Origin: Candidatus Woesearchaeota archaeon
Lineage (GTDB): Archaea > Nanobdellota > Nanobdellia > Woesearchaeales > WJIZ01
Assembly (NCBI GenBank): GCA_018221205.1
Contig: JAAOYF010000017.1
Location: forward strand, 863 to 64,862
Length of the DNA stretch: 64,000 nt
Direction of reading: 5' to 3'
A model generated the notes under the pieces. The model had not been told where the DNA came from. It did no database searches and worked only from the letters and a program-made list of their open reading frames with translations. The translations under genes were made by a program, and so were the position numbers. Positions 1 through 36,522 of the stretch are shown here, piece by piece; positions within the stretch are counted from its first letter, which is position 1, and each line of letters starts with the position of its first letter.

Positions 1-352
1 CATGTCCTTTTCTAAGGTGAGGAAGGATTGCTTTGACGACTTTCTCCATCTGTGTAAGGTCTGGCACAAAATCAAAATCTAAAGGGGTGCCAGGAACAAT
101 GATGAGATACTCAGAATCATATATCTTTTTATCATCGGTTGTACAGGTAAAATTTCCTTCCTTCAGGACCTGCTCAAGAATAGGCTGGGCATGGGGCTCG
201 ATGAATGGCATCTTTCCCTTACAGACCATATCGACAGCAATCTCATTGATATCGAGTGCGACAACATCCTTCTTCTTCTTTGCAAAAGACAATGCTAAAG
301 GCAGACCGACATGCCCACATCCCCCTACAATACAAACATCATGCTTGAACAT
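1..352 (-). CDS. UDP-sugar dehydrogenase family (UDP-ManNAc/UDP-Glc dehydrogenase-like), N-terminal part; gene runs off the window start
   Basis: Reverse-strand translation from ATG at 352-350 gives MFKHDVCIVGGCGHVGLPLALSFAKKK...DINEIAVD, a Rossmann GxGxxG NAD-binding N-terminus typical of WecC/Ugd-family dehydrogenases. No stop codon before position 1. It is not in the ORF track because it is truncated. Confidence 0.55.
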   Translation of the reverse strand, partial: MFKHDVCIVGGCGHVGLPLALSFAKKKKDVVALDINEIAVDMVCKGKMPFIEPHAQPILEQVLKEGNFTCTTDDKKIYDSEYLIIVPGTPLDFDFVPDLTQMEKVVKAILPHLRKGH

Positions 353-427: not shown

Positions 428-1120
428 ATGATAAAGTTCAGCATAGTGATTCCCACATTCAATGAAGAGAAGCATATCAAGGGAACGCTGGAAAGAATCT
501 ATAGCAATCTCAAGAGACACAAACTGCAGGCTGAGATCATCATCGTAGACGACAGCACCGATTCTACACCAAAAATCATACGCTCTCTGAATCTCAAGGA
601 CCTCACCCTCATATACCGAAAAAAAGCGAGAGGTGTCGGCTCTGCGATCCGTGAAGGCATCTCTAAGGCAAAGGAAGAATATATCATTGTATTGATGGCT
701 GACGCACCTGATGATGTAAAATATCTTCCCAGTATGCTCAAGAGACTAGAGCAAGGCTATGATCTTGTCCAGACATCCCGTTTTTTTAAAGGCTGTAAAA
801 TGGAAGGTTATCCTGCAAAAAAACGTGTCTGCAACTGGCTCTGCAACAGCTTCATTAGGGTCTCCTTTTTAGAATTCAGGCTGAAGGATTTCAGCAGCTT
901 ATTCAAGGGATTCAATAGGAAAAAGATCCAAGATTTGAATCTGACAGCAAACGAATTCGATCTTGGACTCGAGATTGTCCTGAAGGCCATGAAAAGAAGA
1001 TATAAGATTATTGAAGTGCCTGTCAATTGGAAAGAACGGGAGACTGGTGAGAGCAAGCTGAAGTTATCAAAATATGCCAAGAACTATTTCTATCGGGTCA
1101 TGAAGATTTGGTTAAGCTAA
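428..1120 (+). CDS. Family-2 glycosyltransferase (DPM1-like dolichol-phosphate sugar synthase type)
   Basis: MIKFSIVIPTFNEE...IIVDDSTDST...ADAPDD motif set of the GT2 GT-A fold. Start taken at the internal Met (428) rather than the ORF-track start at 311. Confidence 0.75.
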   Translation: MIKFSIVIPTFNEEKHIKGTLERIYSNLKRHKLQAEIIIVDDSTDSTPKIIRSLNLKDLTLIYRKKARGVGSAIREGISKAKEEYIIVLMADAPDDVKYLPSMLKRLEQGYDLVQTSRFFKGCKMEGYPAKKRVCNWLCNSFIRVSFLEFRLKDFSSLFKGFNRKKIQDLNLTANEFDLGLEIVLKAMKRRYKIIEVPVNWKERETGESKLKLSKYAKNYFYRVMKIWLS

Positions 1121-1901
1121 GGATGTCTTCTTTATGCAATTCGAGCTCAGCACTTTTGAGATTCTCCTTCACATGCACTAAAGATCTGGATAAAGGGATA
1201 GTGACGACATTCTCCTGGCTGACCAACCAAGAAAGCGCGATCTGTGCATTCGTCACGCCATACTTCTGAGCAAGAGCAGATAATCGTGGATCATCCAATA
1301 ATCTCCCTCTTCCCAACGGCTTATAGGCAATGGTCATGATATCCTGTTTCTGGCAGAACGGTATCATCTCTCGGAGAGGTTCCTGGTGCTGTATATTGAA
1401 TTCTATCTGATGTGCTGCGATTGTATAGTACTGTTGGGCTTCTTTAAGCTGTTGAAGAGAGAAATTGCTCACGCCGATATGCTTTGCTTTTCCCATATCG
1501 ACAAGCTGTTTCATTGCATTCATGGTCTCTTTGAGTGGAATGTCTGGATTGGGCCAGTGGACAAGATAAAGATCGACATATTCTGTTCCGAGTCTTTGTA
1601 AGCTTCTCTCCATTGCAGAAATGACCCCCTCATATGAAAGATTGTCCTTCCATACTTTTGTTGTGAGAAAAAGTTTTCCTCTCTCAGAATATTGGATTGC
1701 TTTCCCGACGATCTTTTCAGCCTGGCCCTGCCCATAGTATTCTGCAGTGTCTATGTGTTCAACACCGGCAACAAGGGCATTCTTGATAAGGTCTATCTCT
1801 TCTTTCTCGTGAGAATCATCAAGTTCATGATCTCCTCCTATGCCCCATGTCCCCAGGCCTATGTCCGGGATGCGCATACTGCCGGCAGTTTTATACTTCA
1901 T
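1098..1901 (-). CDS. Aldo/keto reductase
   Basis: IPDIGLGTWG...IDTAEYYG...LYLVHWP AKR signatures. The start Met is ambiguous: Met15 (1901) or Met23 (1877). Confidence 0.75.
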   Translation of the reverse strand: MKYKTAGSMRIPDIGLGTWGIGGDHELDDSHEKEEIDLIKNALVAGVEHIDTAEYYGQGQAEKIVGKAIQYSERGKLFLTTKVWKDNLSYEGVISAMERSLQRLGTEYVDLYLVHWPNPDIPLKETMNAMKQLVDMGKAKHIGVSNFSLQQLKEAQQYYTIAAHQIEFNIQHQEPLREMIPFCQKQDIMTIAYKPLGRGRLLDDPRLSALAQKYGVTNAQIALSWLVSQENVVTIPLSRSLVHVKENLKSAELELHKEDILSLTKSS

Positions 1902-3096
1902 GAGGAGAAGGCAACGGTACGATGAACGTTCCCTTATATCCAAATTTTTTCAGTTTCGGAATCAGCTCTTCAGCGATATTCCAGGAAAGAAGCAGTGCAT
2001 AATCTGGCTGTTCATCAAAGAGCAGCTTCTCATCTCTTACAGGGATATGTCTTCCAGGAGTAAAAAGTCCTATCTTCAGTGTGCTTTTCTCGACAAGATA
2101 ATCTAAGACATCAGTATCGATGGCGCAGTAGTTCAAAAGGGTGTTTCCTTTTGCAGGTGCCCCTATACCTACAATTTTCTTTCCCTCTGCTTTGATGCGT
2201 CTGAGCATATTCTGGATCTTGAATTTATGCTCCCTTACTTTATCACCGAACGCAAGGTAGGTCGCTTTTTTATCAAGCCCTTTCTTCCGTTCCTCATCTA
2301 AGAGCTTCTGTAGGCGTTCTGTCTTCTCATAGCTTCCTTTCATGCTGACATACGTCCTGATTGAGCCTCCATGTGTAGGGACAGGTTCAGCATCAAAGAG
2401 CTCCAGGTCAAATTGATCGAACAGGCCCTGGAGTGAGAGCAGTGAATAATAACGAAGATGTTCATGATAGATAGAATCCCATTGCATCTTCGTAAGAAGA
2501 TTGAGAAGATAATGCGACTCCTGGATGAATATCCCTTTTTCTGAAAGCAGTTCTTTTATTCCTTTCATCAATGATGAAACATCTTTTACATGCGCAAACA
2601 CATTGGTCGCAGTGATTATTCTTGCTTTGCCCCTTTCTTTTACAATCTTCTTCGCCAACTCATGGGAAAAGAAATCATGGACCGTATCCACTCCATTTTT
2701 TATCGCAATCTCGGCGACACTGCTCGGATCCACCCCTAATATCTTCATCCTTCCTTCATATCCCTTCAGCAGTGTGCCGTCATTCGAGCCGATATCCACA
2801 GCCAGCTCTTCCTTCTCAGGAGAGAATCGCTGTAATGCCGTTTCCACTAACTCTTTGAAGTTTTTGATCAGGCTGTTGTTGCTGGAAGTGGTGTAGACAT
2901 AATCTCTGAACAAGATCTCAGGGTCAACAGCATAGCCAAGTTGGACAAGATAGCAATGTTCACAGAAAAAGACGTCTAAAGGAAAAGTGTTCTCTTCTTT
3001 ATTCAGCTCCTCTTCTTTGAGGAAGGCATCACTAGGTGCATGATGCCCTAATGAAAGGAATTTCGTTGTTTGTTTTCCGCAAAGCGTGCAGTTCAT
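1891..3096 (-). CDS. NDP-hexose C-methyltransferase (TylCIII/EvaC-like; N-terminal Zn-ribbon plus SAM methyltransferase plus C-methyltransferase C-terminal domain)
   Basis: MNCTLCGK..FFCEHCYLVQL (Zn ribbon), VDIGSNDGTLL (SAM motif I), NVFAHV, DSIYHEHLRYYSL, THGGSIR. These match the hallmark order of the sugar C-methyltransferase family. The ATG overlaps the upstream stop (ATGA). Confidence 0.8.
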   Translation of the reverse strand: MNCTLCGKQTTKFLSLGHHAPSDAFLKEEELNKEENTFPLDVFFCEHCYLVQLGYAVDPEILFRDYVYTTSSNNSLIKNFKELVETALQRFSPEKEELAVDIGSNDGTLLKGYEGRMKILGVDPSSVAEIAIKNGVDTVHDFFSHELAKKIVKERGKARIITATNVFAHVKDVSSLMKGIKELLSEKGIFIQESHYLLNLLTKMQWDSIYHEHLRYYSLLSLQGLFDQFDLELFDAEPVPTHGGSIRTYVSMKGSYEKTERLQKLLDEERKKGLDKKATYLAFGDKVREHKFKIQNMLRRIKAEGKKIVGIGAPAKGNTLLNYCAIDTDVLDYLVEKSTLKIGLFTPGRHIPVRDEKLLFDEQPDYALLLSWNIAEELIPKLKKFGYKGTFIVPLPSPHEV

Positions 3097-4040
3097 CGGT
3101 ACCACCCAACACATTTTTTCAATCCGCCTGATAAATCAACCTCTGGTTTCCATCCAAGTGCCTTAAGTTTTGTGATATCAGGGCATCTCCGCTCGACACT
3201 TCCTTCTGGAGCAGATTGCTCATCAATTTCCAGACTGACTTCCATGACTGAAAAAAGTTTCTTGGCCAAATCCATGATCTTGATCTCATCATCCGTACCG
3301 ATATGATACGTTTCCCCTTTCTTGCCTGATTCCATGACAAGTTGGGTGGCGCGGACCGCATCCTGTACATAGCAGAAAGCCCGTGTCTGCTTTCCACCGA
3401 AGATCTTGAATGGCTTTTCATTCTTCACCACACGTTCGATGAATTGGGGGATGACATGGTCATGCCCCATTCTTGGTCCATAGACATTATGATAACGGAC
3501 AATGGAATAATCGATATCATGATTCTTCGCATATGAATGAAAAGCGACCTCTCCTAATATCTTTGAAGCCCCATAGCTCCACCTCACATTAGTGGGATCT
3601 TCAACAATCAAAGGGACATGTTCTGGAGTAGGAAGCGGAAAATCAGGCAGAAGTTTCAAACCTGCACTATAGGCCTCAGAGCTCGAAGTGAAAACAATCT
3701 TTCCTTTCTTGCCGATGATCCAGTCAAGGAGGTTAATTGTGCCCAAGGTATTCACTCTGAGCACCTTTTCAGGGATCTTATAGAAATTTCCTGTGCCGTT
3801 GATGGCTGCAAGATGATAGATATAATCATAATCAGTGTCTAGCTGGCTGAATGCTTCCGTTGTGGTGATATCAGCCTTGATAAAACCCACATTCTCTTGA
3901 GAAATCAGGGTATCGAACTCTTTGTCTTTCTCTGCCCTGCCGAAATTATCAAGAATATCGACCTGCATGCCTTGTTCTGAAAGGTGTGAAGCTAGATGCA
4001 GCCCGACAAAGCCTGCTCCCCCAGTAACTAGTGCTTTCAT
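3093..4040 (-). CDS. NAD-dependent sugar epimerase/dehydratase (extended SDR)
   Basis: [14 protein letters not shown]-terminus and YGASK catalytic YxxxK motif. Confidence 0.8.
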   Translation of the reverse strand: MKALVTGGAGFVGLHLASHLSEQGMQVDILDNFGRAEKDKEFDTLISQENVGFIKADITTTEAFSQLDTDYDYIYHLAAINGTGNFYKIPEKVLRVNTLGTINLLDWIIGKKGKIVFTSSSEAYSAGLKLLPDFPLPTPEHVPLIVEDPTNVRWSYGASKILGEVAFHSYAKNHDIDYSIVRYHNVYGPRMGHDHVIPQFIERVVKNEKPFKIFGGKQTRAFCYVQDAVRATQLVMESGKKGETYHIGTDDEIKIMDLAKKLFSVMEVSLEIDEQSAPEGSVERRCPDITKLKALGWKPEVDLSGGLKKCVGWYR

Positions 4041-4128: not shown

Positions 4129-4830
4129 ATGAGTATTTACGACGATACAGGTGAAGAATCATTAAACGTCCTGAAGGATTCTAAGATTAACAAATACCAG
4201 TATAGTAGCATCAGAAAATTCGTCGGGAAACGCGTCTTGGAGATTGGCAGCGGAATAGGGAATATCAGCCAGTATATCCTCAAGGATAAGAAGCAGCTCG
4301 TCGTTCTTTCTGATATTTCCCCAGATTATATCAAGCAGCTGAAGAAGACATTTCCGAAGAAAGCGAAGTTTGAAGTGTATGATTTAGAGGATAAAAAGAC
4401 CGAGAAGTTCAAGAAGCATCGTCTGGATACTATCATCTGTCTCAATGTCCTCGAACATGTGAAGAATGATAGGCAGGCATTGAAAAATCTCTATAATATC
4501 TTGATTAAAGGTGGAAAACTGATACTCCTTGTACCCTCTCTCAGATTTCTCTATGGGGCACTGGACAAGAACTTAGGCCATTTCCGTAGGTATGAAACAG
4601 GAGAGGTAGTGAAGAAACTAAATCAGGCTGGATTTACTATAGAAAAGAGATATTTTATGAACGGGCTCGCCATACCCGGGTGGTGGTGGCAAGGTAAGAT
4701 TATGAAGAAGAAAGCAGTGAGTCAGGGAGATTTGAAACTCTATGATGCATTCTTTCCCCTGATCAGCCTTTTCGAGAGATTCATCCGGCCATTTATTGGG
4801 TTGTCCATTATCTGTATCGCAAAAAAATGA
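4129..4830 (+). CDS. Class I SAM-dependent methyltransferase
   Basis: VLEIGSGIGN (motif I) ... LNVLEHV ... GGKLIL (Methyltransf_11/23-like). Confidence 0.7.
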   Translation: MSIYDDTGEESLNVLKDSKINKYQYSSIRKFVGKRVLEIGSGIGNISQYILKDKKQLVVLSDISPDYIKQLKKTFPKKAKFEVYDLEDKKTEKFKKHRLDTIICLNVLEHVKNDRQALKNLYNILIKGGKLILLVPSLRFLYGALDKNLGHFRRYETGEVVKKLNQAGFTIEKRYFMNGLAIPGWWWQGKIMKKKAVSQGDLKLYDAFFPLISLFERFIRPFIGLSIICIAKK

Positions 4831-6479
4831 AATTGAAACTGAATGCCATCCTAGAGGTCATGTTCCTTGCACTAGTTCTGGGAATGGTGCTTTATGCTGC
4901 GCTTGGCCCGCTTTGGCAGCAAAAGATAAAGCACGATTTCCCGACCGGTTATTTTGCTTCGGATACCTTCATCCACCTCACCTTCGCAGAAGAGATAAAA
5001 GAAAGGGGCCATTATCGTTATTATCCCTCCTATATGGCATGGGGATTTGATGATGTTATCGGCCATTATCCCCCTATTATCCATCATCTTGCTGCACTCT
5101 TCTCGCTCACAAGTTCGCTCCAGACCTATGATACAATCCTCCTCATGCTTGCTGTCCTTATTGCGCTTTCTATAGGGACATTATATTTCATCCTGAAGAA
5201 ATACAACAAGAACATCGCACTGATGTCATTGCCTCTATCTCTATTAGTTTTTACAGGAAAGGCGACAATAGGGTTCAATTGGGGACAATGGGGGTACCTT
5301 ACTGGTGCTGCATTCCTTATAGGGGTATTTTGGGCAGTCACTCAGCTTGATGTAAAACATTCATACATCCTTCTTGGATTATTTATCGGGATAGATGCTC
5401 TTGCTCACACCTCTGAAGCCATGATGGGTGTGCTCTTCACTCTCCTGTATATAGGTATTAAGCTTATCATTCGCAAGGGAACAAAAGAGAATATCTTTGA
5501 TGTCGTGAAAGCTGGAATAATTGCAGCCGTCATTTCAGGGTATTATCTTATTATTTTCTACTTCACGTGGTTCGCAGCAGAGTTCGAGATTAAAGTGACA
5601 AAGACACTGGTAAGCTTCGGCGTGCAAGATACTGCAGTGAGAATGGATATTTTTGGGTTCTTTTTGCCCCTCGTTATTATTGGTATGGTAGTAGCAGCAT
5701 TGTTCATCATAAGGAAAAAGATCAATGTTGCCTCCCTTATGGGATTCTTCATGCTGCTTATGGGCTACAGCTATCTTTTGGGAGCTGGAAGACGTGCTAC
5801 TCAGGCACGAATCTTTTGGCCGCTTTACCTCGCGGTCTTTCTCGGCATCACCCTGTATTTTGGGTTGAGGATCATCATAAGGAAATGGAGCATCATCTAT
5901 TCATATGCTATTGGTATAATCCTGCTTATGGTAATATTTACCCAATTCTACACGCCTAATCATTCACCAGGCCTGATGAACAATGAGCATTGGCAGTATT
6001 TCCAATGGGCAAGAGAAAACCTGCCAGAAAATAGTGAGGTATTTTACTTTTATAGTGATACGTGGATGCAGAATGCTATGCTCTACTTGGACCAAAGGAA
6101 TTCCTTCATCACTTCCCAATCATTTTTAGGAGAATCGTTGCAGAACAGGACTATTCCTCGTGAGTTCCGAGGAAAAATGGTAACTGAAGGGGGAGCCAGG
6201 CTTCCCTACAGAAAGGGCCTTTTTTCCTATGGATACCATAGTGAAGAAGTAGATAAATCTCCTTTTGTTGGATCGTTTGATATATGTAAATATGATTTTT
6301 ATGCTTTTGACAAGTTCAGTGCAGTGCCTGTATTGGCGCAATATAACCTGCTTATACGTCAGCAGTTGCTTCAAAACAGTTACATGGAAGAAGTGTATGC
6401 CAATAACTTGGTGACTGTATTGAAGAATAACAATCCAAGCGAGGATTGTCTGCCAAGGGAAGGTGTAGTCTTTGTATAA
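4827..6479 (+). CDS. Polytopic integral membrane protein, GT-C-like (putative Dol-P-sugar-dependent glycosyltransferase) with a C-terminal soluble domain
   Basis: At least 10 predicted TM helices followed by a ~150-aa hydrophilic tail. ATGA overlap with the upstream methyltransferase. No WWDYG motif, so it is not AglB. Confidence 0.45.
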   Translation: MKLKLNAILEVMFLALVLGMVLYAALGPLWQQKIKHDFPTGYFASDTFIHLTFAEEIKERGHYRYYPSYMAWGFDDVIGHYPPIIHHLAALFSLTSSLQTYDTILLMLAVLIALSIGTLYFILKKYNKNIALMSLPLSLLVFTGKATIGFNWGQWGYLTGAAFLIGVFWAVTQLDVKHSYILLGLFIGIDALAHTSEAMMGVLFTLLYIGIKLIIRKGTKENIFDVVKAGIIAAVISGYYLIIFYFTWFAAEFEIKVTKTLVSFGVQDTAVRMDIFGFFLPLVIIGMVVAALFIIRKKINVASLMGFFMLLMGYSYLLGAGRRATQARIFWPLYLAVFLGITLYFGLRIIIRKWSIIYSYAIGIILLMVIFTQFYTPNHSPGLMNNEHWQYFQWARENLPENSEVFYFYSDTWMQNAMLYLDQRNSFITSQSFLGESLQNRTIPREFRGKMVTEGGARLPYRKGLFSYGYHSEEVDKSPFVGSFDICKYDFYAFDKFSAVPVLAQYNLLIRQQLLQNSYMEEVYANNLVTVLKNNNPSEDCLPREGVVFV

Positions 6480-6855
6480 AGTAAAAAATGAATTAACAGG
6501 TCTAGGATTCTCCTTTATCATAGTATTCATAATATTCAAGATCGCCTTTTGGCAAGAAACCTTTTCTACTGTACTGAGAACTGTCCTTGCCTTCTATTGG
6601 CTGTTTATCCTTCCGGGTTTTGCTCTTCTCTCCAATTGGCAAGATACTTTCTCTTTTGTTGAACGCTTTATAGTGGGGGCGCTTTTGGGAGGAGGACTAG
6701 TGGCGTTGATAAGCTATTATCTGGGCATCAGTGGATTGCATATCAGATATCACATATGGATACTGCCTCCTCTGCTCATCATCATTGGGCACTCCAGAAA
6801 ACTCATTTCTTTCTTAAGAAATAGGCCAAAGCAGACAGAGCCGCAAAAACAATAA
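6472..6855 (+). CDS. Small integral membrane protein (3-4 TM), function unknown
   Basis: The ORF is hydrophobic throughout and overlaps the upstream gene end. Confidence 0.35.
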   Translation: MYKVKNELTGLGFSFIIVFIIFKIAFWQETFSTVLRTVLAFYWLFILPGFALLSNWQDTFSFVERFIVGALLGGGLVALISYYLGISGLHIRYHIWILPPLLIIIGHSRKLISFLRNRPKQTEPQKQ

Positions 6856-7117
6856 CAACAACCATCCTGAATGAAAATAATCTTCCTGGCCAGTAGGTGA
6901 GCGCTGGAAACAGGGCAAGGCCGATAAAGATGGAATAGATCGCTTTCTCCCCCTGGCTGAGATTGAAAGTATCAAGGATGAAGTAAAAAGGAATAATGAT
7001 GATGATCCATCCCAAGAAAGTAAGCGATCCGCTCATCCCGAAGAAGATGAGTCCGAACAGTGCAAAGAGGATAGCAACAATGCCGATTGTGGTCTTTTCA
7101 TTTAACGCAAGTTTCAA
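6803..7117 (-). CDS. Small integral membrane protein (3 TM)
   Basis: Hydrophobic ORF. It overlaps the stop of the upstream 515-aa membrane protein gene by 4 nt (7114-7117), with its ATG nested in that overlap. Confidence 0.4.
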   Translation of the reverse strand: MKLALNEKTTIGIVAILFALFGLIFFGMSGSLTFLGWIIIIIPFYFILDTFNLSQGEKAIYSIFIGLALFPALTYWPGRLFSFRMVVVIVFAALSALAYFLRKK

Positions 7118-8661
7118 TTTCTATACACCCTGATGAATTCTGATTCATATACTGCTGTCTTGTTTGAAAAAGTCAGCTCAAGATTCTGAAGCGCGGCGAT
7201 GCTCTGTTGGTCTCGGATAAGGGCAAAATCTGACAAGTCAATGACAGTGTAAATGGGTGGTGCTTCCGCCTGTATCGTGCTAGGATAATGGTATCGGTGC
7301 CCGATCATCCACAACCATCGTGTCTTTGCAAGTGATAATGATCCGACATGGACAAATGAAGCATCTTCCTCAAGATCGCTTGAACGGAGCCATTCAGTGT
7401 ATTCGGACTGATGACCATTGATCCTGCCCACTCCTTGATAGGCTCCCTCGAGAAATCCCTGTGCACTTGGTCCTGTCGCGCTCAATAGCAGGACAGCGAA
7501 GACAATGATTGCTCCGTTTTGAAGATGCCCTCTCCATTTCCCTAACGCAGGTAAGAAAGACAATGCATAAAGCAGGCCGATGCTCATGAGAGGATAGAAG
7601 ATATGTGCAGTGCCGCTCAATGATCGATGCACTCTACCTGTCCCGAAGACATCGAGGTGGATCATGATATAGAGGCTGGCGAGCCAGGCAAGAAGCAGCA
7701 GGTCTTTGGACGATCTGCGCAGCAGCAGGAGAGCTATTCCCAGGACAAGAAAAAGGATGCTCCATAAAGGCCCTATCATATCACGGTATGAAAAATAACT
7801 GTCTGGCACACCAGGATTATTTTGAGGTGGCTTGAACCAGGAAAAGAATCTGCTGAAATCTCCCTTCTCGGCAGGATTGGCACCAGAATCCTGGCTTCTT
7901 CCCAGGACATTGAGGGTCTGATAGGGGAACATGCTGATGATGAGGAAAAAAAGCACAACCACAATGGCCATGTGCTTGATAGAAAAAAAGATCTTCTTTT
8001 CTCTGATGAGGATGAAGAGGCTGAAAAGGATCAATCCCAATAAGGTATGGAAAAATACCATCGGATGGATGAAAAGATTGAGTGCGAGGAGGATTGACAT
8101 AAGATAGAGATAGATGGTATTCGGCTTTCCTTTGATGAACGACATGACGTACTGATAGAAACTGTAGAGCACCAAAGGAACATAGGCAAAGGCCATCCGC
8201 TCAGGCCACTGTCCCCAGATGTAGATGAGGATATCCCTGATAGAGAACATGAGAAGGATGCCTGAAAGCAGGGCTGCCTTGAATCCGAAAAGCCTTCTCA
8301 CAACAAAATACACGCTGAGAATGATGAGCAGACAGAAGACTGCATTGGTAAGATAGACTGGCACGGTGCTGCTTCCTCCAAGAAATCCCCCAGTTGCAAG
8401 GCCCATGTGAAAAGGAGGAGGATACCAAAGGACATGTTCCTTGAAGGTATTGTCACGGCCATATCTCATATCAATATAATCAGGCAGGATTTCAATCGAT
8501 CTGTCCAAAGACAGGGTATAATCAGCGACAGCATAATGAGAGGCAGCATCGACTTCTCCATAAGGTAGTGGATTCTGTTGGATAGGCAAGGTCCAGAAAT
8601 AAAGCGCAGTCAGATAAAGAAGCGCAACAATGATGGCTTCGATATACCTGTTTATTTTCAT
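7114..8661 (-). CDS. Polytopic membrane protein, GT-C-like (putative glycosyltransferase or polymerase)
   Basis: About 12 TM helices with a large first extracytoplasmic loop. Confidence 0.5.
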   Translation of the reverse strand: MKINRYIEAIIVALLYLTALYFWTLPIQQNPLPYGEVDAASHYAVADYTLSLDRSIEILPDYIDMRYGRDNTFKEHVLWYPPPFHMGLATGGFLGGSSTVPVYLTNAVFCLLIILSVYFVVRRLFGFKAALLSGILLMFSIRDILIYIWGQWPERMAFAYVPLVLYSFYQYVMSFIKGKPNTIYLYLMSILLALNLFIHPMVFFHTLLGLILFSLFILIREKKIFFSIKHMAIVVVLFFLIISMFPYQTLNVLGRSQDSGANPAEKGDFSRFFSWFKPPQNNPGVPDSYFSYRDMIGPLWSILFLVLGIALLLLRRSSKDLLLLAWLASLYIMIHLDVFGTGRVHRSLSGTAHIFYPLMSIGLLYALSFLPALGKWRGHLQNGAIIVFAVLLLSATGPSAQGFLEGAYQGVGRINGHQSEYTEWLRSSDLEEDASFVHVGSLSLAKTRWLWMIGHRYHYPSTIQAEAPPIYTVIDLSDFALIRDQQSIAALQNLELTFSNKTAVYESEFIRVYRN

Positions 8662-8755: not shown

Positions 8756-9523
8756 ATGAAAGTAGTCATTTTGTGTGGTGGAAAAGGAACTCGTTTAAAA
8801 GAAAAGACAGAGTTCATTCCAAAAGTATTGGTTGAGATAGGAGGCTATCCTATCCTTTGGCATATCATGAAGATCTATTCTCATTTCGGATTCAAGGATT
8901 TCGTCCTTCTTCTTGGCTATAAGGGTGAGATGATCAAGGAATATTTTGCCAACAACGAGACATGGAAAAAAGAGGATTTTAGGCTGGATATGAAGAAGAA
9001 AGAGATCTCATATATCGGGCAGGAACTGGAGGACTGGACAATAGAGTTTATTGATACTGGCCCCGATACCAATACCGGTGGAAGGATCAAAAAGATTCAG
9101 CACCTCATAAAAGATGATACCTTTCTCTGCACCTATGGCGATGGCGTGGCTGATATCGATATAAAGAAGACTATAGAGTTCCATAAAAAGCATGATAAGA
9201 TCGCGACCATGGCTGTCGTGAATCCTCTGAGCCAGTTCGGCATAGTAGAGATAGGGGATGATGATGTAGTCACTGGATTCAAAGAGAAGCCTAAATTAAA
9301 AAGCTGGATCAATGGCGGCTTTTTCGTGTTCAATAAGAAGATATTTGATTTCATCGGCGAGAATGATGTCTTCGAGAAGGATCCGTTGGAGAGGCTGGTG
9401 AAAAAGGGCCAGCTGGCTGCATTCAAGTTCCAGGGATTCTGGGAATGTATGGATACCTACAAGGATAATGAGATGCTGAATGATCTTTGGCACACCCATC
9501 CACCATGGAAGGTGTGGAAATGA
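8756..9523 (+). CDS. rfbF: Glucose-1-phosphate cytidylyltransferase
   Basis: [14 protein letters not shown]...[24 protein letters not shown] is the textbook RfbF/DdhA N-terminus. Start set at the internal Met (8756). Confidence 0.85.
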
Positions 9524-10491
9524 GTTTCTGGAAAGATAAGAATGTCTTTGTCACCGGCGCAACAGGTATAGTCGGCTCAACATTGGTAAGTTTTCTACTC
9601 GAAAAAAAAGCACACGTGACAATCCTTCTAAAAGATGACGTTCCTAACTCTAATCTTATCTTATCAGGAAACATCAAGAAAGTCAACATAGTGAGGGGTA
9701 TTTTAGAGGACTATAAGCTTCTTCACCGCACAGTGCATGAATATGAGATCGATACGGTCTTCCATCTTGGAGCGCAGGCCATAGTGCAGACTGCAAATAG
9801 GTCTCCTCTGCCGACGTTCGAGACCAATATCCGTGGAACATGGAATATCTTAGAGGCAGCACGTACATCTGCCTTGATCAAACGCGTTGTCATCGCTTCC
9901 AGCGATAAAGCATATGGCGACCAAGAGAGGCTTCCTTATACTGAAGACGCTCCGTTGATAGGAAGGCATCCTTATGATGTCTCGAAAAGCTGCGCTGACC
10001 TGCTCTCGCAGGCATATGCCCATAGTTATGATCTGCCAGTTGCGATTGCGCGATGCGCAAATATCTATGGCCCTGGTGATCTGAATTTCAACAGGATCGT
10101 CCCTGAGACCATGAAAGCCGTCCTCGATGACGAGAATCCTAAGATAAGGAGCGATGGAAAGTTCATCCGTGATTACATCTATGTCAAAGATGTCGCCAAT
10201 GCCTATATGGAGCTGGCAGAACAGCTCGATAACAAAGAAGTGAAAGGCCAGGCCTTTAACTTCTCTGCTGGAAATAAGCTGACTGTGCTCGAGATAGTAG
10301 AAATAATCTTAAAAATAGCCGGAAAAAAAGAACTCAAGCCGGTTATCCTGAATCAGGCGAAGAACGAGATAAGGGATCAATATCTGGATGCTGCAAAAGC
10401 GAAGAAGATCCTGAACTGGAAAGCCAAATATGGATTGGAAGAGTCACTGAAACAGACCTTTGATTGGTACAAATCTTTCTTGGACGCATAA
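9520..10491 (+). CDS. rfbG: CDP-glucose 4,6-dehydratase
   Basis: [20 protein letters not shown]...[11 protein letters not shown] is RfbG/DdhB-like. ATGA overlap with rfbF. Confidence 0.85.
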
Positions 10492-12353: not shown

Positions 12354-12373
12354 TGCCTGATTGAGGTGGAAAT

Positions 12374-15296: not shown

Positions 15297-16781
15297 GCAG
15301 GCATCAGAGGTTCTTTTAATAATGGTCAGATCGCATACGAGAAGCTCTTCGCAGTAGCTCCCGAATGTCACAAGTTGTGTTATTTTTTGCTCTGTCATGA
15401 GTGAGATGATCCTATCGCATTTGGTTTGTTGGACAGCTGAGATGATGTCCTGATTAAATACCAATACGTCTGGATCAGCATTCTGTGTGATCCATCCCAT
15501 GGTGGTGGTCGCATTATTTATTATGGTGATATAACTGACTAACGCATTGCGATGGATGGTCGGATAGTCTGGGTGAGGAACGACAATAAATCGTTCATCT
15601 GCTGCATCTGCAACATCGATGGCTTGGAGATCCATGGGATTATGGGTGAAAGATCCGAGATTTGCGAAAAAAGGGACATAAATGAGCAAAGGGATGAACA
15701 TCTGATAGACAAAGACCAGAAACACGATTTTTTTGAGGCGTGATATCCTCGAGAAATCCAATGTGAATAAGAGATAAAGAAAGAGGAACCAGAAGAAACT
15801 CACAAAGATAAGATGGTACATGATATTGATGACAGGAAGGAAATAGGTTATCTTAAAGAGATAGAGGACAGAAAGGATAACTGCAGGAAGGAAGAAAAGC
15901 CCTTCTTTTTTCTTCTGACGAAGCGTGATGAAGAAAACAAAGAGAAAGGCGAGTATGACAATATCATGATAGATGTTCTTGGTGAAAAGCAAGGGATTAG
16001 AGAGGGAGAAATTATTCTGGAGATAGCTCAGTCCATAGAACGAACCGATACGTGACTGGCTCCCGCTCAGAAAAAGAGGTATCCACCAGAAAGAAGTCAA
16101 TAATAGGCTGAGCAAGAATGTCGCTGTGATCCTGATCTTATCCCTGAAATTCCGGATAAGAAAGAATCCAGCTAAAAGGGTAAGGGAGAGAAAATAGATC
16201 ATCGTGTTGCTCACGATGAGTGCTGCACTGGTGAATGCATATCCCATGATGAAAGTTCCTTTGATTTCCTTCTTTTTGTGGTAAAAAAGGATGAATGATT
16301 GAAGTGCGAAGATAGTCCATCCAAGCGCTTCTGGTAACCTGCCGAGATTGAGAGTATCGAATAAAAAGATGGGATTAAAGAAGAAAAGCCCGAAGAAAAG
16401 CCATGTGTTCCGACCAGAAAACCCTTTATGGAGTGAAGAATAACGGAGGATGATAAAAAGTGAGAGGACATACATGAGGACTATAGTGATAAAGACAGTG
16501 ACAGGAAGATGATCAGTTAAAAGATAGATTGGAAGGGCAAAAAAATAATATCCAAAATAATATGCCTGGAAAGGGTGAAATCCGTTGTACCAGTTAGGGG
16601 CTTCTGCATATCCATACTCCCGAAGAAAATGGATCCTGCCCATATGAGAAGAATAATCCTGATGGGATGTAGAAAGAGGGAAATGGGTCATGGAAGGGAT
16701 AAAATTGAGGAACAATATAATAAATAAGACGAGTGCGATGAAAGCAGCGGGTGTGGACAAAGAAAAGAAGTCCTTCTTCAT
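15282..16781 (-). CDS. Polytopic membrane protein, GT-C-like, with a C-terminal soluble domain
   Basis: About 11 TM helices followed by a ~120-aa hydrophilic C-terminus. Start at Met5 gives an ATGA overlap with the rmd-like gene. Confidence 0.5.
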   Translation of the reverse strand: MKKDFFSLSTPAAFIALVLFIILFLNFIPSMTHFPLSTSHQDYSSHMGRIHFLREYGYAEAPNWYNGFHPFQAYYFGYYFFALPIYLLTDHLPVTVFITIVLMYVLSLFIILRYSSLHKGFSGRNTWLFFGLFFFNPIFLFDTLNLGRLPEALGWTIFALQSFILFYHKKKEIKGTFIMGYAFTSAALIVSNTMIYFLSLTLLAGFFLIRNFRDKIRITATFLLSLLLTSFWWIPLFLSGSQSRIGSFYGLSYLQNNFSLSNPLLFTKNIYHDIVILAFLFVFFITLRQKKKEGLFFLPAVILSVLYLFKITYFLPVINIMYHLIFVSFFWFLFLYLLFTLDFSRISRLKKIVFLVFVYQMFIPLLIYVPFFANLGSFTHNPMDLQAIDVADAADERFIVVPHPDYPTIHRNALVSYITIINNATTTMGWITQNADPDVLVFNQDIISAVQQTKCDRIISLMTEQKITQLVTFGSYCEELLVCDLTIIKRTSDACLFYE

Positions 16782-17671
16782 CGCGACCTCCAATATCCAA
16801 GGATGTCCTTTAGTGTCTGTTCAAAAGGAATCTCCGGCTTCCAGCCAGTATCATGTGTGACTTTTGAATTATCTCCTATCATCACTTGGATATCCTGCTT
16901 CCGGAATTTCTCTGGAGATTGCTGGATGGCGATCTTATGGCTGCTCAGTTCCAGCATCTGCTGGAGGATATCGACAATCTTCTGCCCCTTTCCAGAACAG
17001 AGATTATAGGTCTCTCCGTACCTTCCTTTGGTAGCGAGAAGATAATATCCTCTGACAATATCTCTCACATCAGAGAAATCTCTCACTGCTTCCAGGTTCC
17101 CTATCTGGATATTGGCCTTCTTCCTTCCCTTCTCGATCTCAGCAATCTGTTTCGCAAAATCCGAGATGACGAATTGCTCTCGTTGTCCGGGTCCTGCATG
17201 GTTAAAGCTTCGGGAGATGATAATGGGCATGATGTCCTGATAAGACTTGCATAACTCTTCCTGTTCAAGTTTTGATTCGGCGTAAGGATTGAGTGGCCGT
17301 AAGGAACTGCTTTCAGTGAGAGGGACAGTCTCGGGCTTGCCATATACTTCAGCAGAGCTGACAAGCAGAAAAAAAGGCTTGTATGGTGCACACGCCTCGA
17401 GCAGATTCTTCGTTCCTTCAACATTTATCTTTTTCGTCAATGCTGGTTGTTTCCAGCTCATCTGGACAGAAGATTGGGCAGCAAGATGGAAGACATAATC
17501 AGGCTGCGTTTCCTTGATGAGCTGCCCTACTTCTTCCTTATTCGTGATATCGACAGCATAGTCGACATCTTGAGATATCTCGCTCGTGCTGACAACAGAA
17601 AAATGGTTCTCGAGATGTTTCCTGAGATAGGGGCCCACAAAACCGTTGGCTCCGGTGATCAGTGCCTTCAT
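16778..17671 (-). CDS. GDP-4-dehydro-6-deoxy-D-mannose reductase-like SDR (Rmd/Fcl family)
   Basis: [13 protein letters not shown]...PYAESK (YxxxK). It lies immediately downstream of gmd with a 4-nt overlap. Confidence 0.7.
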
Positions 17672-18630
17672 TGTTCTTTCTTGAGCTTCTCCAAGTCAGC
17701 ATCGACCATGATCTTGACAAGCTCCTTGAAAGTCACGCGGGGCTTCCAACCTAGGACCTTCTCTGCTTTGCCATAGTCTCCTATCAGCTGGTCTACTTCC
17801 GCAGGTCTTAAGAATTTCTTGTCCAATTTGACGTAATCCTCATAGTTCAGTCCGAGATGGCTGAAAGCATGCTCACAGAATTCTCTGACAGAATGCACCT
17901 CGTTCGTGGCGACGACGAAGTCTTCCGGAATCTTATGCTGCATCATGAGCCACATCGCCTCGACGTAATCAGGTGCATATCCCCAATCTCTTTTCGCATC
18001 CAGATTGCCCAACAAAAGTTCTTTTTGCAATCCTAATTTAATCTTTGCGGCAGTATTGGTGATCTTTCGGGTGACAAATTGAAGGCCCCTTCTTGGACTT
18101 TCATGATTGAAGAGGATACCGTTTGTCGTGAACATATTATAGCTCTCTCGATAGTTTTTCATTATCCAGAAAGCGAACACTTTTGAGACTCCATATGGGC
18201 TCCGTGGATAAAAAGGGGTTTTCTCGGTCTGGGGGATCTCCTGGACTTTGCCGAACATCTCTGATGAAGAGGCTTGATACACTTTTATCTTCGGATTGAT
18301 ATGGCGTACTGCTTCCAGGATGCGTAAGGCGCCTACTGCTGTGACATTTGCAGTAAGTGCTGGTTGTGTCCATGACACTGGAACGAAACTCTGTGCAGCT
18401 AAATTGTATATTTCATCTGGCCCTATATCTTTGATGGTCTCATTGAGAGAATTCTGATCAGTAAGATCTGCAGTGATCAAATTGACTTTGTCTTTGATAT
18501 GGTTGATACGCTCAAACGTATCTACACTGCTTCTCCGATAAAGTCCATAGACGTCATAGTTCTTCTTGAGCAGAAATTCCGCTAAGTAGGAGCCGTCCTG
18601 TCCAGTAATGCCGGTAATTATCGCTTTCAT
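17668..18630 (-). CDS. gmd: GDP-mannose 4,6-dehydratase
   Basis: [21 protein letters not shown]...YNLAAQSFV...YGVSK...FNHESPRRG are Gmd hallmark strings. Confidence 0.9.
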
Positions 18631-24650: not shown

Positions 24651-24651
24651 A

Positions 24652-33512: not shown

Positions 33513-34445
33513 CTAAGTGAGATTTTTAAAATATTCTATTGTATGCTTGAGACCTTCCTCCAATTCAATCTTCGGTTCCCAATTAAGATGCTTTTTTGCA
33601 AGTGAGATATCTGGCTTGCGTTGGATAGGGTCAGCCGCATGTAATTCTTTATTGATAGGTTTTGATTTTGATCCGGTTAAATGGATGATCTTCTCTGCTA
33701 GTTCTAGAATAGTGAACTCATCTGGATTGCCTAGATTAACCGGCCCGATAGCCTTAACTTGATTCATCATAGCAACCATCCCATTGATAAGATCAGCAAC
33801 ATAACAAAAGCTTCTTGTCTGTTTGCCATCGCCATAAATGGTGATGTCTTTGTCTGCCAAAGCCTGAGAAATGAAATTTGAGACCACTCTTCCATCATTC
33901 CTCGCCATCCTCGGCCCATAAGTATTGAATATCCTGACAACCCTGATATCCAGTTTATGCTGACGGTGATAATCAAAGCAAAGCGTCTCCGCACATCTCT
34001 TCCCTTCATCATAGCATGCCCGTATGCCTATGGGATTGACATTGCCCCAATAACTCTCCTTTTGGGGATGCTCTTTCGGATCACCATAGACTTCCGATGT
34101 GCTTGCCTGCAGCATTCTTGCATTATGCTTCTTTGCCAGGCCGAGCATGTTGATTGTCCCTAGGACGTTCGCCTTGATGGTGCGGATGGCGTTGAATTGG
34201 TAATGGACTGGGGATGCCGGACAGGCAAGATTATAGATCTGGTCGATGTTCTCCTCAATAGCTAGGGGATCGATGATATCATGATTCATCATTGTGAAGT
34301 TTGGATTTTTCTTGAGGTGCTCTATATTCTTCTCATTTCCGGTGAAGAAATTATCGACGCAGATAACTTTATTCTCCTTGATAAGAACATCGCACAGATG
34401 GCTCCCTAAGAAACCAGCTCCCCCAGTGACAACGATCGTCTTCAT
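33513..34445 (-). CDS. uxs: UDP-glucuronate decarboxylase (UDP-xylose synthase)
   Basis: [19 protein letters not shown]...CVDNFFTG...[19 protein letters not shown]. Confidence 0.85.
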
Positions 34446-35164
34446 GAGAGGAACTCCTTCTCTGCAAGCTCTAATTGCTCGAGTGAACCGATATCAAACC
34501 ATTTTTTCTTGACTGGATAGCCGAAAACATCCTCTTTTGTATACAGCCACTCCAAGAAATCTCCTGCTTTGTCGCTTTTTTGGGTTGAATCGAGGAATTC
34601 GATGAGCTTTTGTATGGTTTGGGCAGGATAGAAGTAAACTCCTGTTGAAGAGAGGGTGGATCTTGGCTCTTGAGGCTTCTCTTCGAAATGGACAATCTTT
34701 CCGTTCTCGGCTATCGAGACTATTCCATAGAGTTTCGCTAGTTCCTTGTTCTGGACATCATAGAGCGCGACCACATTGTTCCTTTTTTCCTTGAAGTAAG
34801 AGTAGATCTCTTCCAGACCGAATTCAAAGAGATTATCTCCTGCGACAATAAGTAAATCCTCATTGAGGGAAAACTTGTCGATGACAAACCGGATATCTCC
34901 TAATGAACCGAGCCTGTCATCATTTGACATGGTGAGGTCATTCACGATAGTGATCGGCTTTGCTATGCTTTTCTTCCACTCCTCGAAATGGGAAAAGAAC
35001 TTATTGTTCGTAACAACATAGATATGATCGACTTCTTGAGGTATCTTCTCGATGATATAGTTGATGATCAGCTTTCCTTTGACATCAAGAAGAGGTTTTG
35101 GTTTGTCCTTAGTAAGAGGATATAGCCTGGTGGCATACCCTGCAGCAAGAATGATTGCTTTCAT
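34442..35164 (-). CDS. Sugar-1-phosphate nucleotidylyltransferase (short NTP_transferase)
   Basis: [26 protein letters not shown]. Confidence 0.7.
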
Positions 35165-36462: not shown

Positions 36463-36483
36463 ACAGCCGGATAGAGAAAGATG

Positions 36484-36522
36484 CTTTAAATATCTTACCA
36501 CTATCCTACCTTATCCGATATG
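36484..36522. promoter_or_regulatory. Divergent promoter with two TATA boxes (gctttaaatatc and tttatatac)
   Basis: Each box sits 24-38 nt upstream of its start codon (36462 minus, 36552 plus). Confidence 0.45.

Follow-up and report, generated by a model that had tools for sequence, protein, structure and literature searches.

What branched sugar is built by an archaeal operon in which a C-methyltransferase (MT) is coupled to an SDR and an aldo-keto reductase (AKR)? The operon lies on the minus strand of the window, by which we mean the whole 64,000-nucleotide stretch of woesearchaeal DNA analysed here. The range 1891-4040 given for it in the earlier note encloses the SDR and the MT, as claimed, while the AKR falls outside. 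The translational coupling described there is borne out by the DNA sequence: the SDR stop and the MT start share an ATGA at 3096-3093, and the AKR reading frame begins, with an ATG at 1901, before the MT gene ends, an overlap of 11 nt. The MT open reading frame spans 1891..3114 (minus strand, 407 aa), and the NCBI start at Met7 gives 401 aa from 3096. The genes considered are as follows.

3093..4040, minus strand: extended SDR ("SDR_op"), 315 aa, proposed NDP-hexuronate 4-oxidase/decarboxylase (PDB, motifs, co-occurrence, orthologue contexts)
1891..3096, minus strand: NDP-sugar C-methyltransferase of the TylCIII/TcaB9/MtmC family, 401 aa (Pfam, PDB, model)
1098..1901, minus strand: AKR, 267 aa, proposed 4-ketoreductase after C-methylation (Pfam Aldo_ket_red)
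1..352, minus strand: nucleotide-sugar 6-dehydrogenase, N-terminal 117 codons, proposed to convert NDP-hexose to NDP-hexuronate (translation)
428..1120, plus strand: GT2 of the polyprenyl-phosphate sugar synthase type, proposed to load the sugar onto dolichyl phosphate (Pfam Glycos_transf_2)
4129..4830, plus strand: class I SAM methyltransferase, 233 aa, tentative pathway member (Pfam Methyltransf_12/23/11)
4827..6479, plus strand: polytopic GT-C-like membrane protein, 550 aa, tentatively using a lipid-phosphate sugar donor (DUF6541 below cut-off)
7114..8661, minus strand: polytopic GT-C-like membrane protein (ArnT/PMT superfamily), 515 aa, tentative (DUF6541, PMT_2)

The 401-aa protein belongs to the TylCIII/TcaB9 family of sugar C-methyltransferases. 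Its Pfam matches, Methyltransf_13 (2.2e-20, residues 9-69), Methyltransf_23 (6.5e-17, 88-239) and Methyltransf_14 (3.2e-51, 246-402), lie far above chance level, and the protein has the complete order of a four-Cys zinc domain, a SAM domain and a C-terminal Methyltransf_14 domain. The domain order read in the earlier note, which gave the protein 400 aa, therefore stands, and the DSIYHEHLRYYSL and THGGSIR blocks quoted there are both found in the translation. Sequence searches of the PDB returned MtmC (4.1e-85), TcaB9 (1e-69) and KijD1 (1.2e-68); because these C3-methyltransferases are the only solved full-length relatives, the protein sides with C-methyltransferases and not with O- or N-methyltransferases. 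Its predicted model (pLDDT 92.4) superposes on MtmC, KijD1 and TcaB9 over the full length with TM 0.96-0.97, and every other match has a TM of at most 0.37. C3, C6, C45, C48, Y68, H169, Y210, E212 and H213 are invariant across 29 aligned family members. The last five correspond to the TcaB9 residues Y76, H181, Y222, E224 and H225, which have been mutated according to PDB entry titles and sequence differences, and all five are kept.

The earlier note drew on the CDP-glucose 4,6-dehydratase route encoded about 5 kb away to predict a C-methyl-branched 6-deoxyhexose. Spelled out, the MT would methylate CDP-4-keto-6-deoxy-D-glucose from the RfbF and RfbG-like enzymes, and epimerisation and reduction by the SDR and AKR would yield a CDP-linked, vinelose-like C-methyl 6-deoxyhexose. 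The RfbF and RfbG-like genes do exist: RfbF passes the TIGR02623 equivalog cut-off (305.6 vs 300.25 bits), and the RfbG-like protein, with an S-D-K motif, is placed closest to the CDP-glucose 4,6-dehydratase family, at 207.5 bits against a TIGR02622 cut-off of 278.45. Azotobacter CDP-vinelose offers a chemical precedent, and some MT family members directly adjoin RfbF-RfbG, as in locus L013 (RfbF-RfbG-MT). However, in a neighbour-joining tree, rough and without support values, the CDP-linked MTs form a separate basal clade, whereas the window enzyme groups with the dehydrogenase/SDR-linked ones, as sister to that of L008 (dehydrogenase-SDR-MT-AKR). The CDP genes are also on the other strand, in a different transcription unit, with their own CDP-tyvelose-2-epimerase-like SDR downstream. 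Among related loci flanked on each side by 3 kb or more of sequence, in which genes within 5 kb were counted, an RfbG-like gene was found in none of the 16 SDR-linked loci vs 4 of the 19 others. Moreover, the association of the SDR with a 6-dehydrogenase and its apparent feeding of DegT aminotransferases in orthologous loci, described below, would be left unexplained. Judged from these genomic comparisons, the CDP route is disfavoured as the source of substrate, and a CDP-linked product of the operon is unlikely.

In the same 16 SDR-linked and 19 other loci, a nucleotide-sugar 6-dehydrogenase occurs in 12 and 2 (p=1.4e-4, with a similar result in a second count), a GT2 in 12 and 6 (p=0.018) and a GDP-mannose dehydratase (GMD) in 0 and 8 (p=0.004), respectively, the loci being phylogenetically non-independent. 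Given the 6-dehydrogenase co-occurrence and the absence of GMD, the SDR appears to fill the slot of GMD or RfbG, and since it and GMD exclude each other in these loci, it more probably forms a keto group than reduces one. Its orthologues (60-66% identity) lie in dehydrogenase-SDR-DegT aminotransferase operons (L096, L097, L098) or in a dehydrogenase-SDR-MT-AKR arrangement with a GT2 (L099); the next gene is thus either DegT or this MT with its AKR. Since an aminotransferase needs a keto-sugar, the SDR may be read as the keto-sugar supplier in the DegT operons, and in L096 it is the sole upstream candidate for keto-group formation. In L001 and L096 the dehydrogenase gene shares 4 nt with the SDR gene, and a gap of 2 nt separates the two in L099. 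The window holds the same set as the L099-type loci, comprising the dehydrogenase fragment and a GT2 orthologue.

The earlier note took the SDR for an epimerase or reductase, and its motifs point elsewhere. The family alignment reveals an invariant S-S/N-E triad, YxxxK and x-T-R-[A/S]-F, represented in the window protein by S-S-E, YGASK and QTRAF. A TSE triad with a conserved Arg marks decarboxylases (PMC10338323). Human UXS1, the best single-sequence PDB match (1.1e-37), has TSE and QTRAF, the oxidoreductase/decarboxylase Pcryo_0617 (8vr2) has TSE and IRAW, and the window's own canonical UXS-like SDR310 has STSEVY, YDEGK and QTRSF. S-S-T and RKSY are found in the 4-epimerase 8rdg, and R-D-[FWY] in the window's dehydratases. 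The family therefore carries, as far as motifs can tell, the signature of UDP-glucuronate decarboxylases, and does not stand out as an epimerase or reductase; the window SDR itself has a low identity, 26-32%, to the known 4-keto-pentose-releasing decarboxylases.

Alternatively, the SDR may use a non-uronate NDP-hexose, as a 4-epimerase, 4,6-dehydratase or terminal 4-ketoreductase, with the dehydrogenase serving another sugar and a C-methyl hexose as the product. Epimerases do rank among its top matches: the family profile scores 206 bits with PhGal4E, 204 with Pcryo_0617 and 195 with human UXS1, and Foldseek, in which epimerases and decarboxylases are not discriminated, places TmGalE first. 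Nor is S-S-E confined to the SDR, as the window's GMD has it too (SSSEMF) and the Rmd-like SDR297 has S-A-E. The SDR is also well under all curated cut-offs (NF008872 U4kpxs, 90.8 vs 294 bits; ArnA, 69 vs 777). However, the triad Glu and the R-A-F motif are missing in the aligned epimerases, and the tight dehydrogenase-SDR spacing, the L096 operon and the mutual exclusivity with GMD all argue against this assignment, which we consider rather unlikely.

The MT and AKR might instead act on GDP-4-keto-6-deoxy-D-mannose from the window's GMD (17668..18630) to give an evalose- or virenose-type GDP-6-deoxy-3-C-methylhexose, and the SDR would then have some other role. This GMD is a strong match (448 bits to PF16363), and a neighbouring MT subclade of CPR bacteria, at 55-57% identity nearly as similar as the SDR-linked enzymes, is arranged MT-AKR-GMD. 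Given that GMD and the SDR never occur together next to an MT in the loci counted, that the window GMD lies 14 kb off beside its own reductase-like SDR297, and that the MT is ATGA-coupled to the SDR, such a route is quite improbable.

The AKR (MBR9699238, "aldo/keto reductase" in NCBI) matches Aldo_ket_red at 8.7e-69, and the structures closest to it are those of generic 2,5-diketogluconate reductases (5dan, 3.3e-69). It directly follows the MT in 12 loci and, because it does so in SDR-linked and GMD-linked loci alike, it may be read as the reductase after methylation. Most bacterial SDR-linked loci have no reductase beside the MT.

Two genes beside the operon had been overlooked in the earlier note. 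The dehydrogenase fragment starts MFKHDVCIVGGCGHVG..., has a Rossmann GxGxxG, and continues past the left window edge. Against dehydrogenases linked to the MT or SDR elsewhere it scores 54-82 bits, compared with 43 bits for the window's own UGDH. PF03721 is present in its database homologues, and the family is nearest to the UDP-ManNAc dehydrogenases 4r16 and Cap5O. The divergent GT2 sits between it and the operon, and, unlike its relatives, it does not share a transcript with the SDR. The GT2 (Glycos_transf_2, 3.8e-26) has AglJ, dolichyl-phosphate hexose transferase and ArnC as top NCBIfam matches, each below cut-off, and the sole structures matched at E<1e-8 are those of ArnC and of the dolichol-P-mannose synthase from P. 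furiosus (5mlz, 6.7e-23). Orthologues at 251-312 bits occur in all five fetched DPANN loci of the operon's type (L001, L008, L016, L019 and L099, of which L016 and L099 are possibly one population). The SAM methyltransferase at 4129..4830 is divergent from the operon, has only weak homologues near SDR orthologues, and could tentatively be a glycan O-methyltransferase. The membrane proteins match DUF6541 at 1.1e-5 (4827..6479) and 8.9e-12 (7114..8661, also PMT_2 at 3.2e-4). Genes for PMT_2-type GT-C proteins lie beside the operon in L001, L098 and L099, and no sequence-level orthology was detected for 4827..6479.

We infer that the operon and the flanking dehydrogenase and GT2 quite plausibly, and on balance probably, constitute an Arn-like pathway to a C-methyl-branched pentose. 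The 6-dehydrogenase would oxidise an NDP-hexose, possibly UDP-Glc or UDP-HexNAc, to the uronic acid, and the SDR would oxidise C4 and decarboxylate it to an NDP-4-keto-pentose, as do ArnA, CalS9, RsU4kpxs and EvdS6. The TcaB9-type MT would then deprotonate the carbon adjoining the 4-keto group and add a methyl group from SAM, most likely at C3, since all solved relatives are C3-methyltransferases. NovU-like methylation at C5, likewise alpha to the ketone with acidic protons and the target of TylCIII/TcaB9-family enzymes known from aminocoumarin pathways, would give a rebuilt 4-keto-6-deoxyhexose or a 5-C-methyl sugar but is very improbable, as the catalytic residues of those C3 enzymes are fully conserved here and such rebuilding would be wasteful because 4,6-dehydratases are encoded in the same island. 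In the proposed pentose pathway, the AKR would reduce the 4-keto group, the DPM-synthase/ArnC-like GT2 would transfer the sugar to dolichyl phosphate, and enzymes of the GT-C membrane type would pass it to a cell-surface acceptor. The SDR signature, the co-occurrence, the orthologue contexts and the separate CDP clade thus make a C-methyl pentose a more probable product than the C-methyl 6-deoxyhexose predicted in the earlier note. The literature searched contained no 3-C-methyl pentose, so the proposed product is without chemical precedent; nor did it yield any account of C-methyl sugars from archaeal glycans, in line with the earlier note. A DPANN archaeon (Woesearchaeota) possesses a genuine sugar C-methyltransferase operon, whose suggested product is a methyl-branched pentose derived from a sugar acid.

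The MT shares its three domains, four-Cys zinc site and five catalytic residues with the NDP-hexose C3-methyltransferases TcaB9 (tetronitrose), MtmC (mycarose, mithramycin), KijD1 (kijanose) and TylCIII/EvaC, at 34-37% identity. In actinomycete antibiotic biosynthesis, these enzymes follow RmlA/RmlB and 2,3-dehydratases and methylate dTDP-4-keto-2,6-dideoxyhexoses, whereas the window enzyme resides in a cell-surface glycan island of a DPANN archaeon, with a UXS/ArnA-like SDR and a 6-dehydrogenase as partners. No dTDP route was found in the annotated 1-45.5 kb of the window. In the GDP- and CDP-linked routes to C-methyl 6-deoxyhexoses, Coxiella virenose and Azotobacter CDP-vinelose, a family MT follows a 4,6-dehydratase, as in the MT-AKR-GMD and RfbF-RfbG-MT arrangements; the window MT, in contrast, is coupled to a UXS-like SDR and belongs to a different clade from the CDP-linked enzymes. 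The only well-known branched-pentose route, UDP-apiose/UDP-xylose synthase, also starts from UDP-GlcA and employs an extended SDR and a 4-keto intermediate, and it is among the distant matches of the SDR (58-119 bits), but apiose arises by ring contraction in one enzyme, with neither SAM nor a methyl group.

CalS8/CalS9, AtmS9, RsU4kpxs, EvdS6 and Pcryo_0617 include extended SDRs with the [T/S]-S-E triad, YxxxK and conserved Arg seen in the window SDR. Such 4-keto-pentose-releasing decarboxylases are paired with a 6-dehydrogenase and supply the 4-keto-pentose for tailoring (PMC10338323). For everninomicin, C-branching of a 4-keto-pentose by a TPP enzyme has been proposed, and our literature search found no report of any of these systems feeding a SAM-dependent C-methyltransferase. 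The Arn pathway of Gram-negative bacteria (Ugd, the ArnA dehydrogenase domain, ArnB, ArnC, ArnT) has the same logic and protein families as the window: a 6-dehydrogenase, a decarboxylating SDR that yields a 4-keto-pentose, tailoring of the keto node, a GT2 acting on polyprenyl phosphate, and a GT-C transferase. The SDR orthologues followed by DegT mirror the step from ArnA to ArnB. Archaea lack lipid A, the Arn acceptor. The keto node, which is transaminated and formylated in the Arn pathway, would be C-methylated and reduced in the window.

The window is part of a contig of 67.6 kb from a DPANN archaeon, Candidatus Woesearchaeota, and the genes of the operon, with those beside it, are the following.

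4040..3093, minus strand: extended SDR (NCBI MBR9699240, 'NAD-dependent epimerase/dehydratase family protein')
3096..1891, minus strand: methyltransferase, MT (NCBI MBR9699239, 'class I SAM-dependent methyltransferase', 401 aa); the ORF reaches 3114
1901..1098, minus strand: aldo/keto reductase, AKR (NCBI MBR9699238, 'aldo/keto reductase', 267 aa)
428..1120: GT2, between the dehydrogenase and the AKR
352..1, minus strand: N-terminus of a nucleotide-sugar dehydrogenase, beginning MFKHDVCIVGGCGHVG, with an ORF that continues beyond the left window edge

An ATGA is common to the SDR stop and the MT start, and the AKR starts 11 nt inside the MT gene. The span 1891-4040, given for the three-gene operon in the earlier note, covers the SDR and the MT, while the AKR lies outside it.

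The same note had read the MT as a sugar C-methyltransferase of the TylCIII type with the full domain order, and our analyses bear this out. Pfam profiles matched the N-terminal zinc domain (Methyltransf_13, PF08421, 2.2e-20, above cut-off), the class I SAM-binding domain (Methyltransf_23, PF13489, 6.5e-17, residues 88-239) and the C-terminal nucleotide-sugar binding domain (Methyltransf_14, PF08484, 3.2e-51, profile positions 1-160 of 160), in that order. The only full-length solved matches, MtmC (4.1e-85, 37% identity), TcaB9 (1e-69, 34% identity) and KijD1 (1.2e-68), are sugar C3-methyltransferases rather than O- or N-methyltransferases. The AlphaFold model (pLDDT 92.4), with a Rossmann-like alternation of strands and helices in the SAM domain, superposes on MtmC, KijD1 and TcaB9 over the full length (TM 0.96-0.97, rmsd 1.5-1.7 A), and the remaining PDB matches cover the SAM domain only (TM <=0.37). 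Residues C3, C6, C45 and C48, aligned with the CxxC...CxxC of TcaB9 and MtmC, are invariant across 29 homologues. So are Y68, H169, Y210, E212 and H213, the counterparts of TcaB9 Y76, H181, Y222, E224 and H225, which are altered in the TcaB9 mutants of the PDB (Y76F, H181N, Y222F, E224Q and H225N, from entry titles and sequence differences). The MT matched no NCBIfam model; its family is large, with at least 8000 scored candidates, all at E <=0.001, and the closest members among the matches listed are from Woesearchaeota and CPR bacteria. Taken together, the Pfam domains, the full-length solved matches, the superposition and the invariant catalytic and zinc residues confirm, at the level of sequence and model, that the MT is an NDP-sugar C-methyltransferase of the TylCIII/TcaB9 family, and the protein itself thus belongs to a known family.

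The role of the SDR is less directly given. The top single-sequence PDB match is the human UDP-glucuronate decarboxylase UXS1 (hUXS1, 1.1e-37). A family profile built from 23 MT-adjacent members scores 206 bits against the Pyrococcus horikoshii GDP-sugar 4-epimerase PhGal4E (8rdg), 204 bits against 8vr2, titled 'Pcryo_0617 oxidoreductase/decarboxylase', and 195 bits against hUXS1. The motifs GGAGFVG, SSSEAY, YGASK and QTRAF are kept across 32 MT-adjacent members and align with hUXS1 and 8vr2, and the family invariants are an S-S/N-E triad (S-S-E also occurs in the GDP-mannose 4,6-dehydratase, GMD, of the window), YxxxK and x-T-R-[A/S]-F. The same signature is found in hUXS1 (TSE, QTRAF), in 8vr2 (TSE, IRAW) and in SDR310, the canonical UXS-like SDR of the window (STSEVY, YDEGK, QTRSF), while the 4-epimerase 8rdg has S-S-T and RKSY instead and the dehydratases of the window have R-D-[FWY]. 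The source organism of 8vr2 produces a pentose, 2,3,4-triacetamido-2,3,4-trideoxy-L-arabinose (PMC8040287). Decarboxylases have been described by GxxGxxG, a [T/S]-S-E triad, YxxxK and a conserved Arg that corresponds to R619 of ArnA; of these, TSE and the Arg are named as decarboxylase marks, and a 4-keto-pentose is released by ArnA, CalS9, AtmS9 and RsU4kpxs (PMC10338323).

The SDR scored below the cut-off of every curated decarboxylase equivalog model, and for this reason we do not file it in those equivalogs; it probably works like the UXS/ArnA-type decarboxylases. A Foldseek search with the SDR model did not tell epimerases, decarboxylases and dehydratases apart (all TM 0.76-0.86), so that the argument for a decarboxylase draws on motifs and context. 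We also considered a plain 4-epimerase, given that PhGal4E is the top profile match; this role is unlikely, because PhGal4E lacks the triad Glu and the R-A-F. The SDR sequence does not separate release of a keto product, as by ArnA, from its reduction, as by UXS.

The contexts of the SDR orthologues provide the strongest evidence for its role. In four loci of DPANN archaea (L096-L099), the orthologues are 60-66% identical to the window SDR. The dehydrogenase and SDR genes overlap or adjoin, and are followed by a DegT aminotransferase or by the MT and AKR. The order in L096 is dehydrogenase-SDR-DegT-SDR, with all genes overlapping; L097 and L098 have the dehydrogenase, DegT and SDR genes near one another; and L099 has dehydrogenase-SDR-MT-AKR together with GT2 and PMT_2-type GT-C genes. 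An aminotransferase requires a keto-sugar, the dehydrogenase yields a uronic acid, and in L096 the SDR is the sole upstream enzyme able to generate the keto group, which is the logic that leads from ArnA to ArnB. Oxidation of a hexuronate at C4 gives a beta-keto acid, and hence decarboxylation.

The neighbourhoods of MT relatives were surveyed in 95 fetched loci, the four around SDR orthologues being additional. A search of genome contigs with the single MT protein gave 8 loci, and a metagenome search with the MT alignment gave 80, which were used for the statistics; the proteins of the window served to score the neighbours. In 28 loci an orthologue or homologue of the window SDR adjoins the MT, immediately upstream and in the same orientation; the alternatives are a GMD, in the order MT-AKR-GMD, in CPR bacteria, and RfbF with an RfbG-like gene. 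Co-occurrence within 5 kb was compared by Fisher test in those 35 loci that extend 3 kb or more in both directions. A nucleotide-sugar 6-dehydrogenase accompanies 12 of the 16 SDR-linked MTs and 2 of the 19 others (p=1.4e-4), GMD none of the 16 and 8 of the 19 (p=0.004), and GT2 12/16 and 6/19, respectively (p=0.018). The SDR-MT pair is present in dozens of loci. Directly 3' of the MT stands an AKR gene in 12 loci, some of them SDR-linked and others GMD-linked, and a Gfo/Idh/MocA oxidoreductase gene in 9. In a rough NJ tree, the sister of the window MT is that of L008, a Woesearchaeote locus with the order dehydrogenase-SDR-MT-AKR.

Several further features of these loci were recorded. The MT-AKR pair of Woesearchaeota (window 1098-3096) shares 55-57% identity with its counterpart in CPR bacteria (Niyogibacteria, Saccharibacteria and Taylorbacteria; L005-L007, L009, L018, L023, L025-L027), more than with those of most other bacteria, suggesting that DPANN archaea and CPR bacteria have shared genes. 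B12-binding radical SAM genes repeatedly adjoin the SDR/MT operons of relatives (L008:4536-5969, minus strand; L005/L006:2015-3547; L098:1685-2983 and 5634-6959); they could encode further C-methylases, and the window holds no homologue of them. A marine Woesearchaeote locus carries a second Methyltransf_13/14 paralogue (L001:12793-14013, minus strand, 406 aa, 378 bits to the window MT) 3 kb from the first, adjoining another SDR and GT2 genes. Many bacterial loci (L010, L049, L082, L089 and others) group dehydrogenase, GT2, SDR and MT compactly in one cassette, which has no AKR but frequently includes a Gfo/Idh/MocA oxidoreductase (WbpB/WbpE-like) or a DegT aminotransferase. A cultivable candidate carrier of the dehydrogenase-SDR-MT cassette is Roseospira navarrensis DSM 15114 (L014).

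Judged by sequence, the window carries the same gene set as the SDR/MT loci of its relatives. The dehydrogenase fragment at 352..1 scores 54-82 bits against the MT-linked dehydrogenases and only 43 against the UDP-glucose 6-dehydrogenase (UGDH) of the window (35161..36501); a database search for its full-length form returned N-terminal fragments only. The MT-linked dehydrogenase family is nearest to UDP-ManNAc dehydrogenases (4r16, Cap5O), with CalS8 among the matches, and falls far under every equivalog cut-off. The sole solved relatives of the GT2 are the archaeal dolichol-phosphate-mannose synthase (PfDPMS, 6.7e-23) and ArnC, and its NCBIfam matches are all of the lipid-phosphate sugar synthase type, far below cut-off. 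At 230 aa against 322-374 aa for those structures, it is too short to accommodate the C-terminal regions by which they are anchored in the membrane. Each of the five DPANN loci of this kind that were fetched carries an orthologue of the GT2 (251-312 bits). Beyond the operon, on its other side, come two GT-C-like membrane proteins; these are counted as pathway members only tentatively, since no sequence orthology was detected between them and the GT-C proteins of related loci. The solved relatives of the AKR are generic diketogluconate reductases, none nucleotide-sugar-specific; TylCII and EryBII represent the AKR12 group of sugar ketoreductases.

The operon belongs to an island of glycan genes, about 37 kb long, which contains other sources of 4-keto-sugars.

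8756..10491: RfbF and RfbG-like CDP-glucose genes, with a CDP-tyvelose-epimerase-like SDR nearby
16778..18630: GMD and a reductase-like SDR
33513..36501, minus strand: operon of UGDH, a nucleotidyltransferase and a canonical UXS

The earlier note had proposed that a CDP-glucose 4,6-dehydratase route feeds the MT and leads to a C-methyl-branched 6-deoxyhexose. RfbF indeed exceeds its cut-off (305.6 vs 300.25), and the CDP route may supply the substrate; however, the RfbG-like protein falls below its own (207.5 vs 278.45), although this is still its best family, and the genes lie 5 kb away, on a different strand and in a different transcription unit. Moreover, CDP-linked MTs form a separate, basal clade in the rough tree, and an RfbG-like gene accompanies 0/16 SDR-linked loci, so that this route appears unlinked to the MT. 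A GDP route through GMD may also be envisaged, but the CDP and GDP genes each have partners of their own and neither set is a conserved neighbour of the window MT clade.

The island has additional features. The SDR at 12431-13483 (plus strand) is nearest to CDP-tyvelose 2-epimerase (9rl0, 1.3e-32; 1orr) and has Phe at the catalytic Tyr position (HSLFGASK vs HSPYGCSK), as does its nearest orthologue fragment (L042:3-587), Tyr being kept in the more distant L076 and L029. A GalE-like SDR at 13480-14595 (plus strand) contains, after the catalytic Ser/Thr region, a zinc ribbon-like CxxC...CxxC insert of about 35 residues (about 132-165), which is kept in its orthologues (L016:13175-14287, L076:14875-16008). 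A domain of the GT9 or heptosyltransferase family (PF01075, 9.9e-21) is present in the 420-aa protein at 11136-12398 (minus strand); GT9 proteins typically belong to LPS core synthesis in bacteria, and one would not be expected in an archaeon. In the operon at 33513-36501, the UGDH is a genuine UDP-glucose 6-dehydrogenase (560 bits to TuaD) and is accompanied by the nucleotidyltransferase and the UXS-like SDR (STSEVY, YDEGK, QTRSF); UDP-xylose or a related pentose is probably a further product of the organism. Decoration of the glycan with phospho-alcohols or amides is hinted at by a CDP-alcohol phosphatidyltransferase, an asparagine synthase homologue and a cytidylyltransferase-like gene at 23970-27020, together with an LPG_synthase_TM protein at 30400-31329.

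For the operon itself we prefer an Arn-like route to a C-methyl-branched pentose. The dehydrogenase would convert an NDP-hexose to the NDP-hexuronate, from which the SDR would form an NDP-4-keto-pentose and CO2; the MT would then methylate carbon, probably at C3, the AKR would reduce the 4-keto group, and the sugar would be transferred to dolichyl phosphate by the GT2 and to a surface acceptor by a GT-C protein. More broadly, and with somewhat less than even confidence, we propose that such a pathway, from NDP-hexuronate through a 4-keto-pentose and TcaB9-type C-methylation to a C-methyl-branched pentose, is widespread among DPANN archaea and in numerous bacteria that have not been cultivated, the methylated intermediate being reduced by the AKR in archaea and otherwise processed in bacteria, and the product reaching the archaeal surface by a dolichyl-phosphate carrier and GT-C.

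Our search of the open-access literature found nothing on 3-C-methyl-xylose or -arabinose, no 4-keto-pentose combined with a C-methyltransferase, and no description of the TylCIII/TcaB9-type family in DPANN or other archaea. Nor did it return the predicted C-methyl pentose, or the combination of a 6-dehydrogenase, a decarboxylating SDR, a TcaB9-type C-methyltransferase and an AKR. DPANN archaeal surfaces mediate host attachment, and to our knowledge there is no description of their glycan chemistry. Since every enzyme is small and soluble, the pathway is open to direct testing in vitro. If the CDP route were right instead, the finding would be more ordinary: 6-deoxyhexose chemistry that is already known, extended to an archaeon.

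The known exits from the 4-keto-pentose node are Ara4N, aminopentoses, xylose and eurekanate. The proposed pathway, if true, would add a branch at this node and a new sugar class, the C-methyl pentoses; it would also give archaeal glycans their first predicted C-branched sugar and put the ArnA-type keto node to a new use. TcaB9-type C-methylation, known from the antibiotics of actinomycetes, would then extend to the cell envelopes of archaea and of many bacteria from the environment. In contrast to the actinomycete antibiotic enzymes, the window MT is archaeal and lies in a glycan island. The likeness to the Arn pathway is in the keto node: the step from SDR to DegT in the orthologous loci would correspond to that from ArnA to ArnB, and the MT with the AKR would provide an alternative exit from it.
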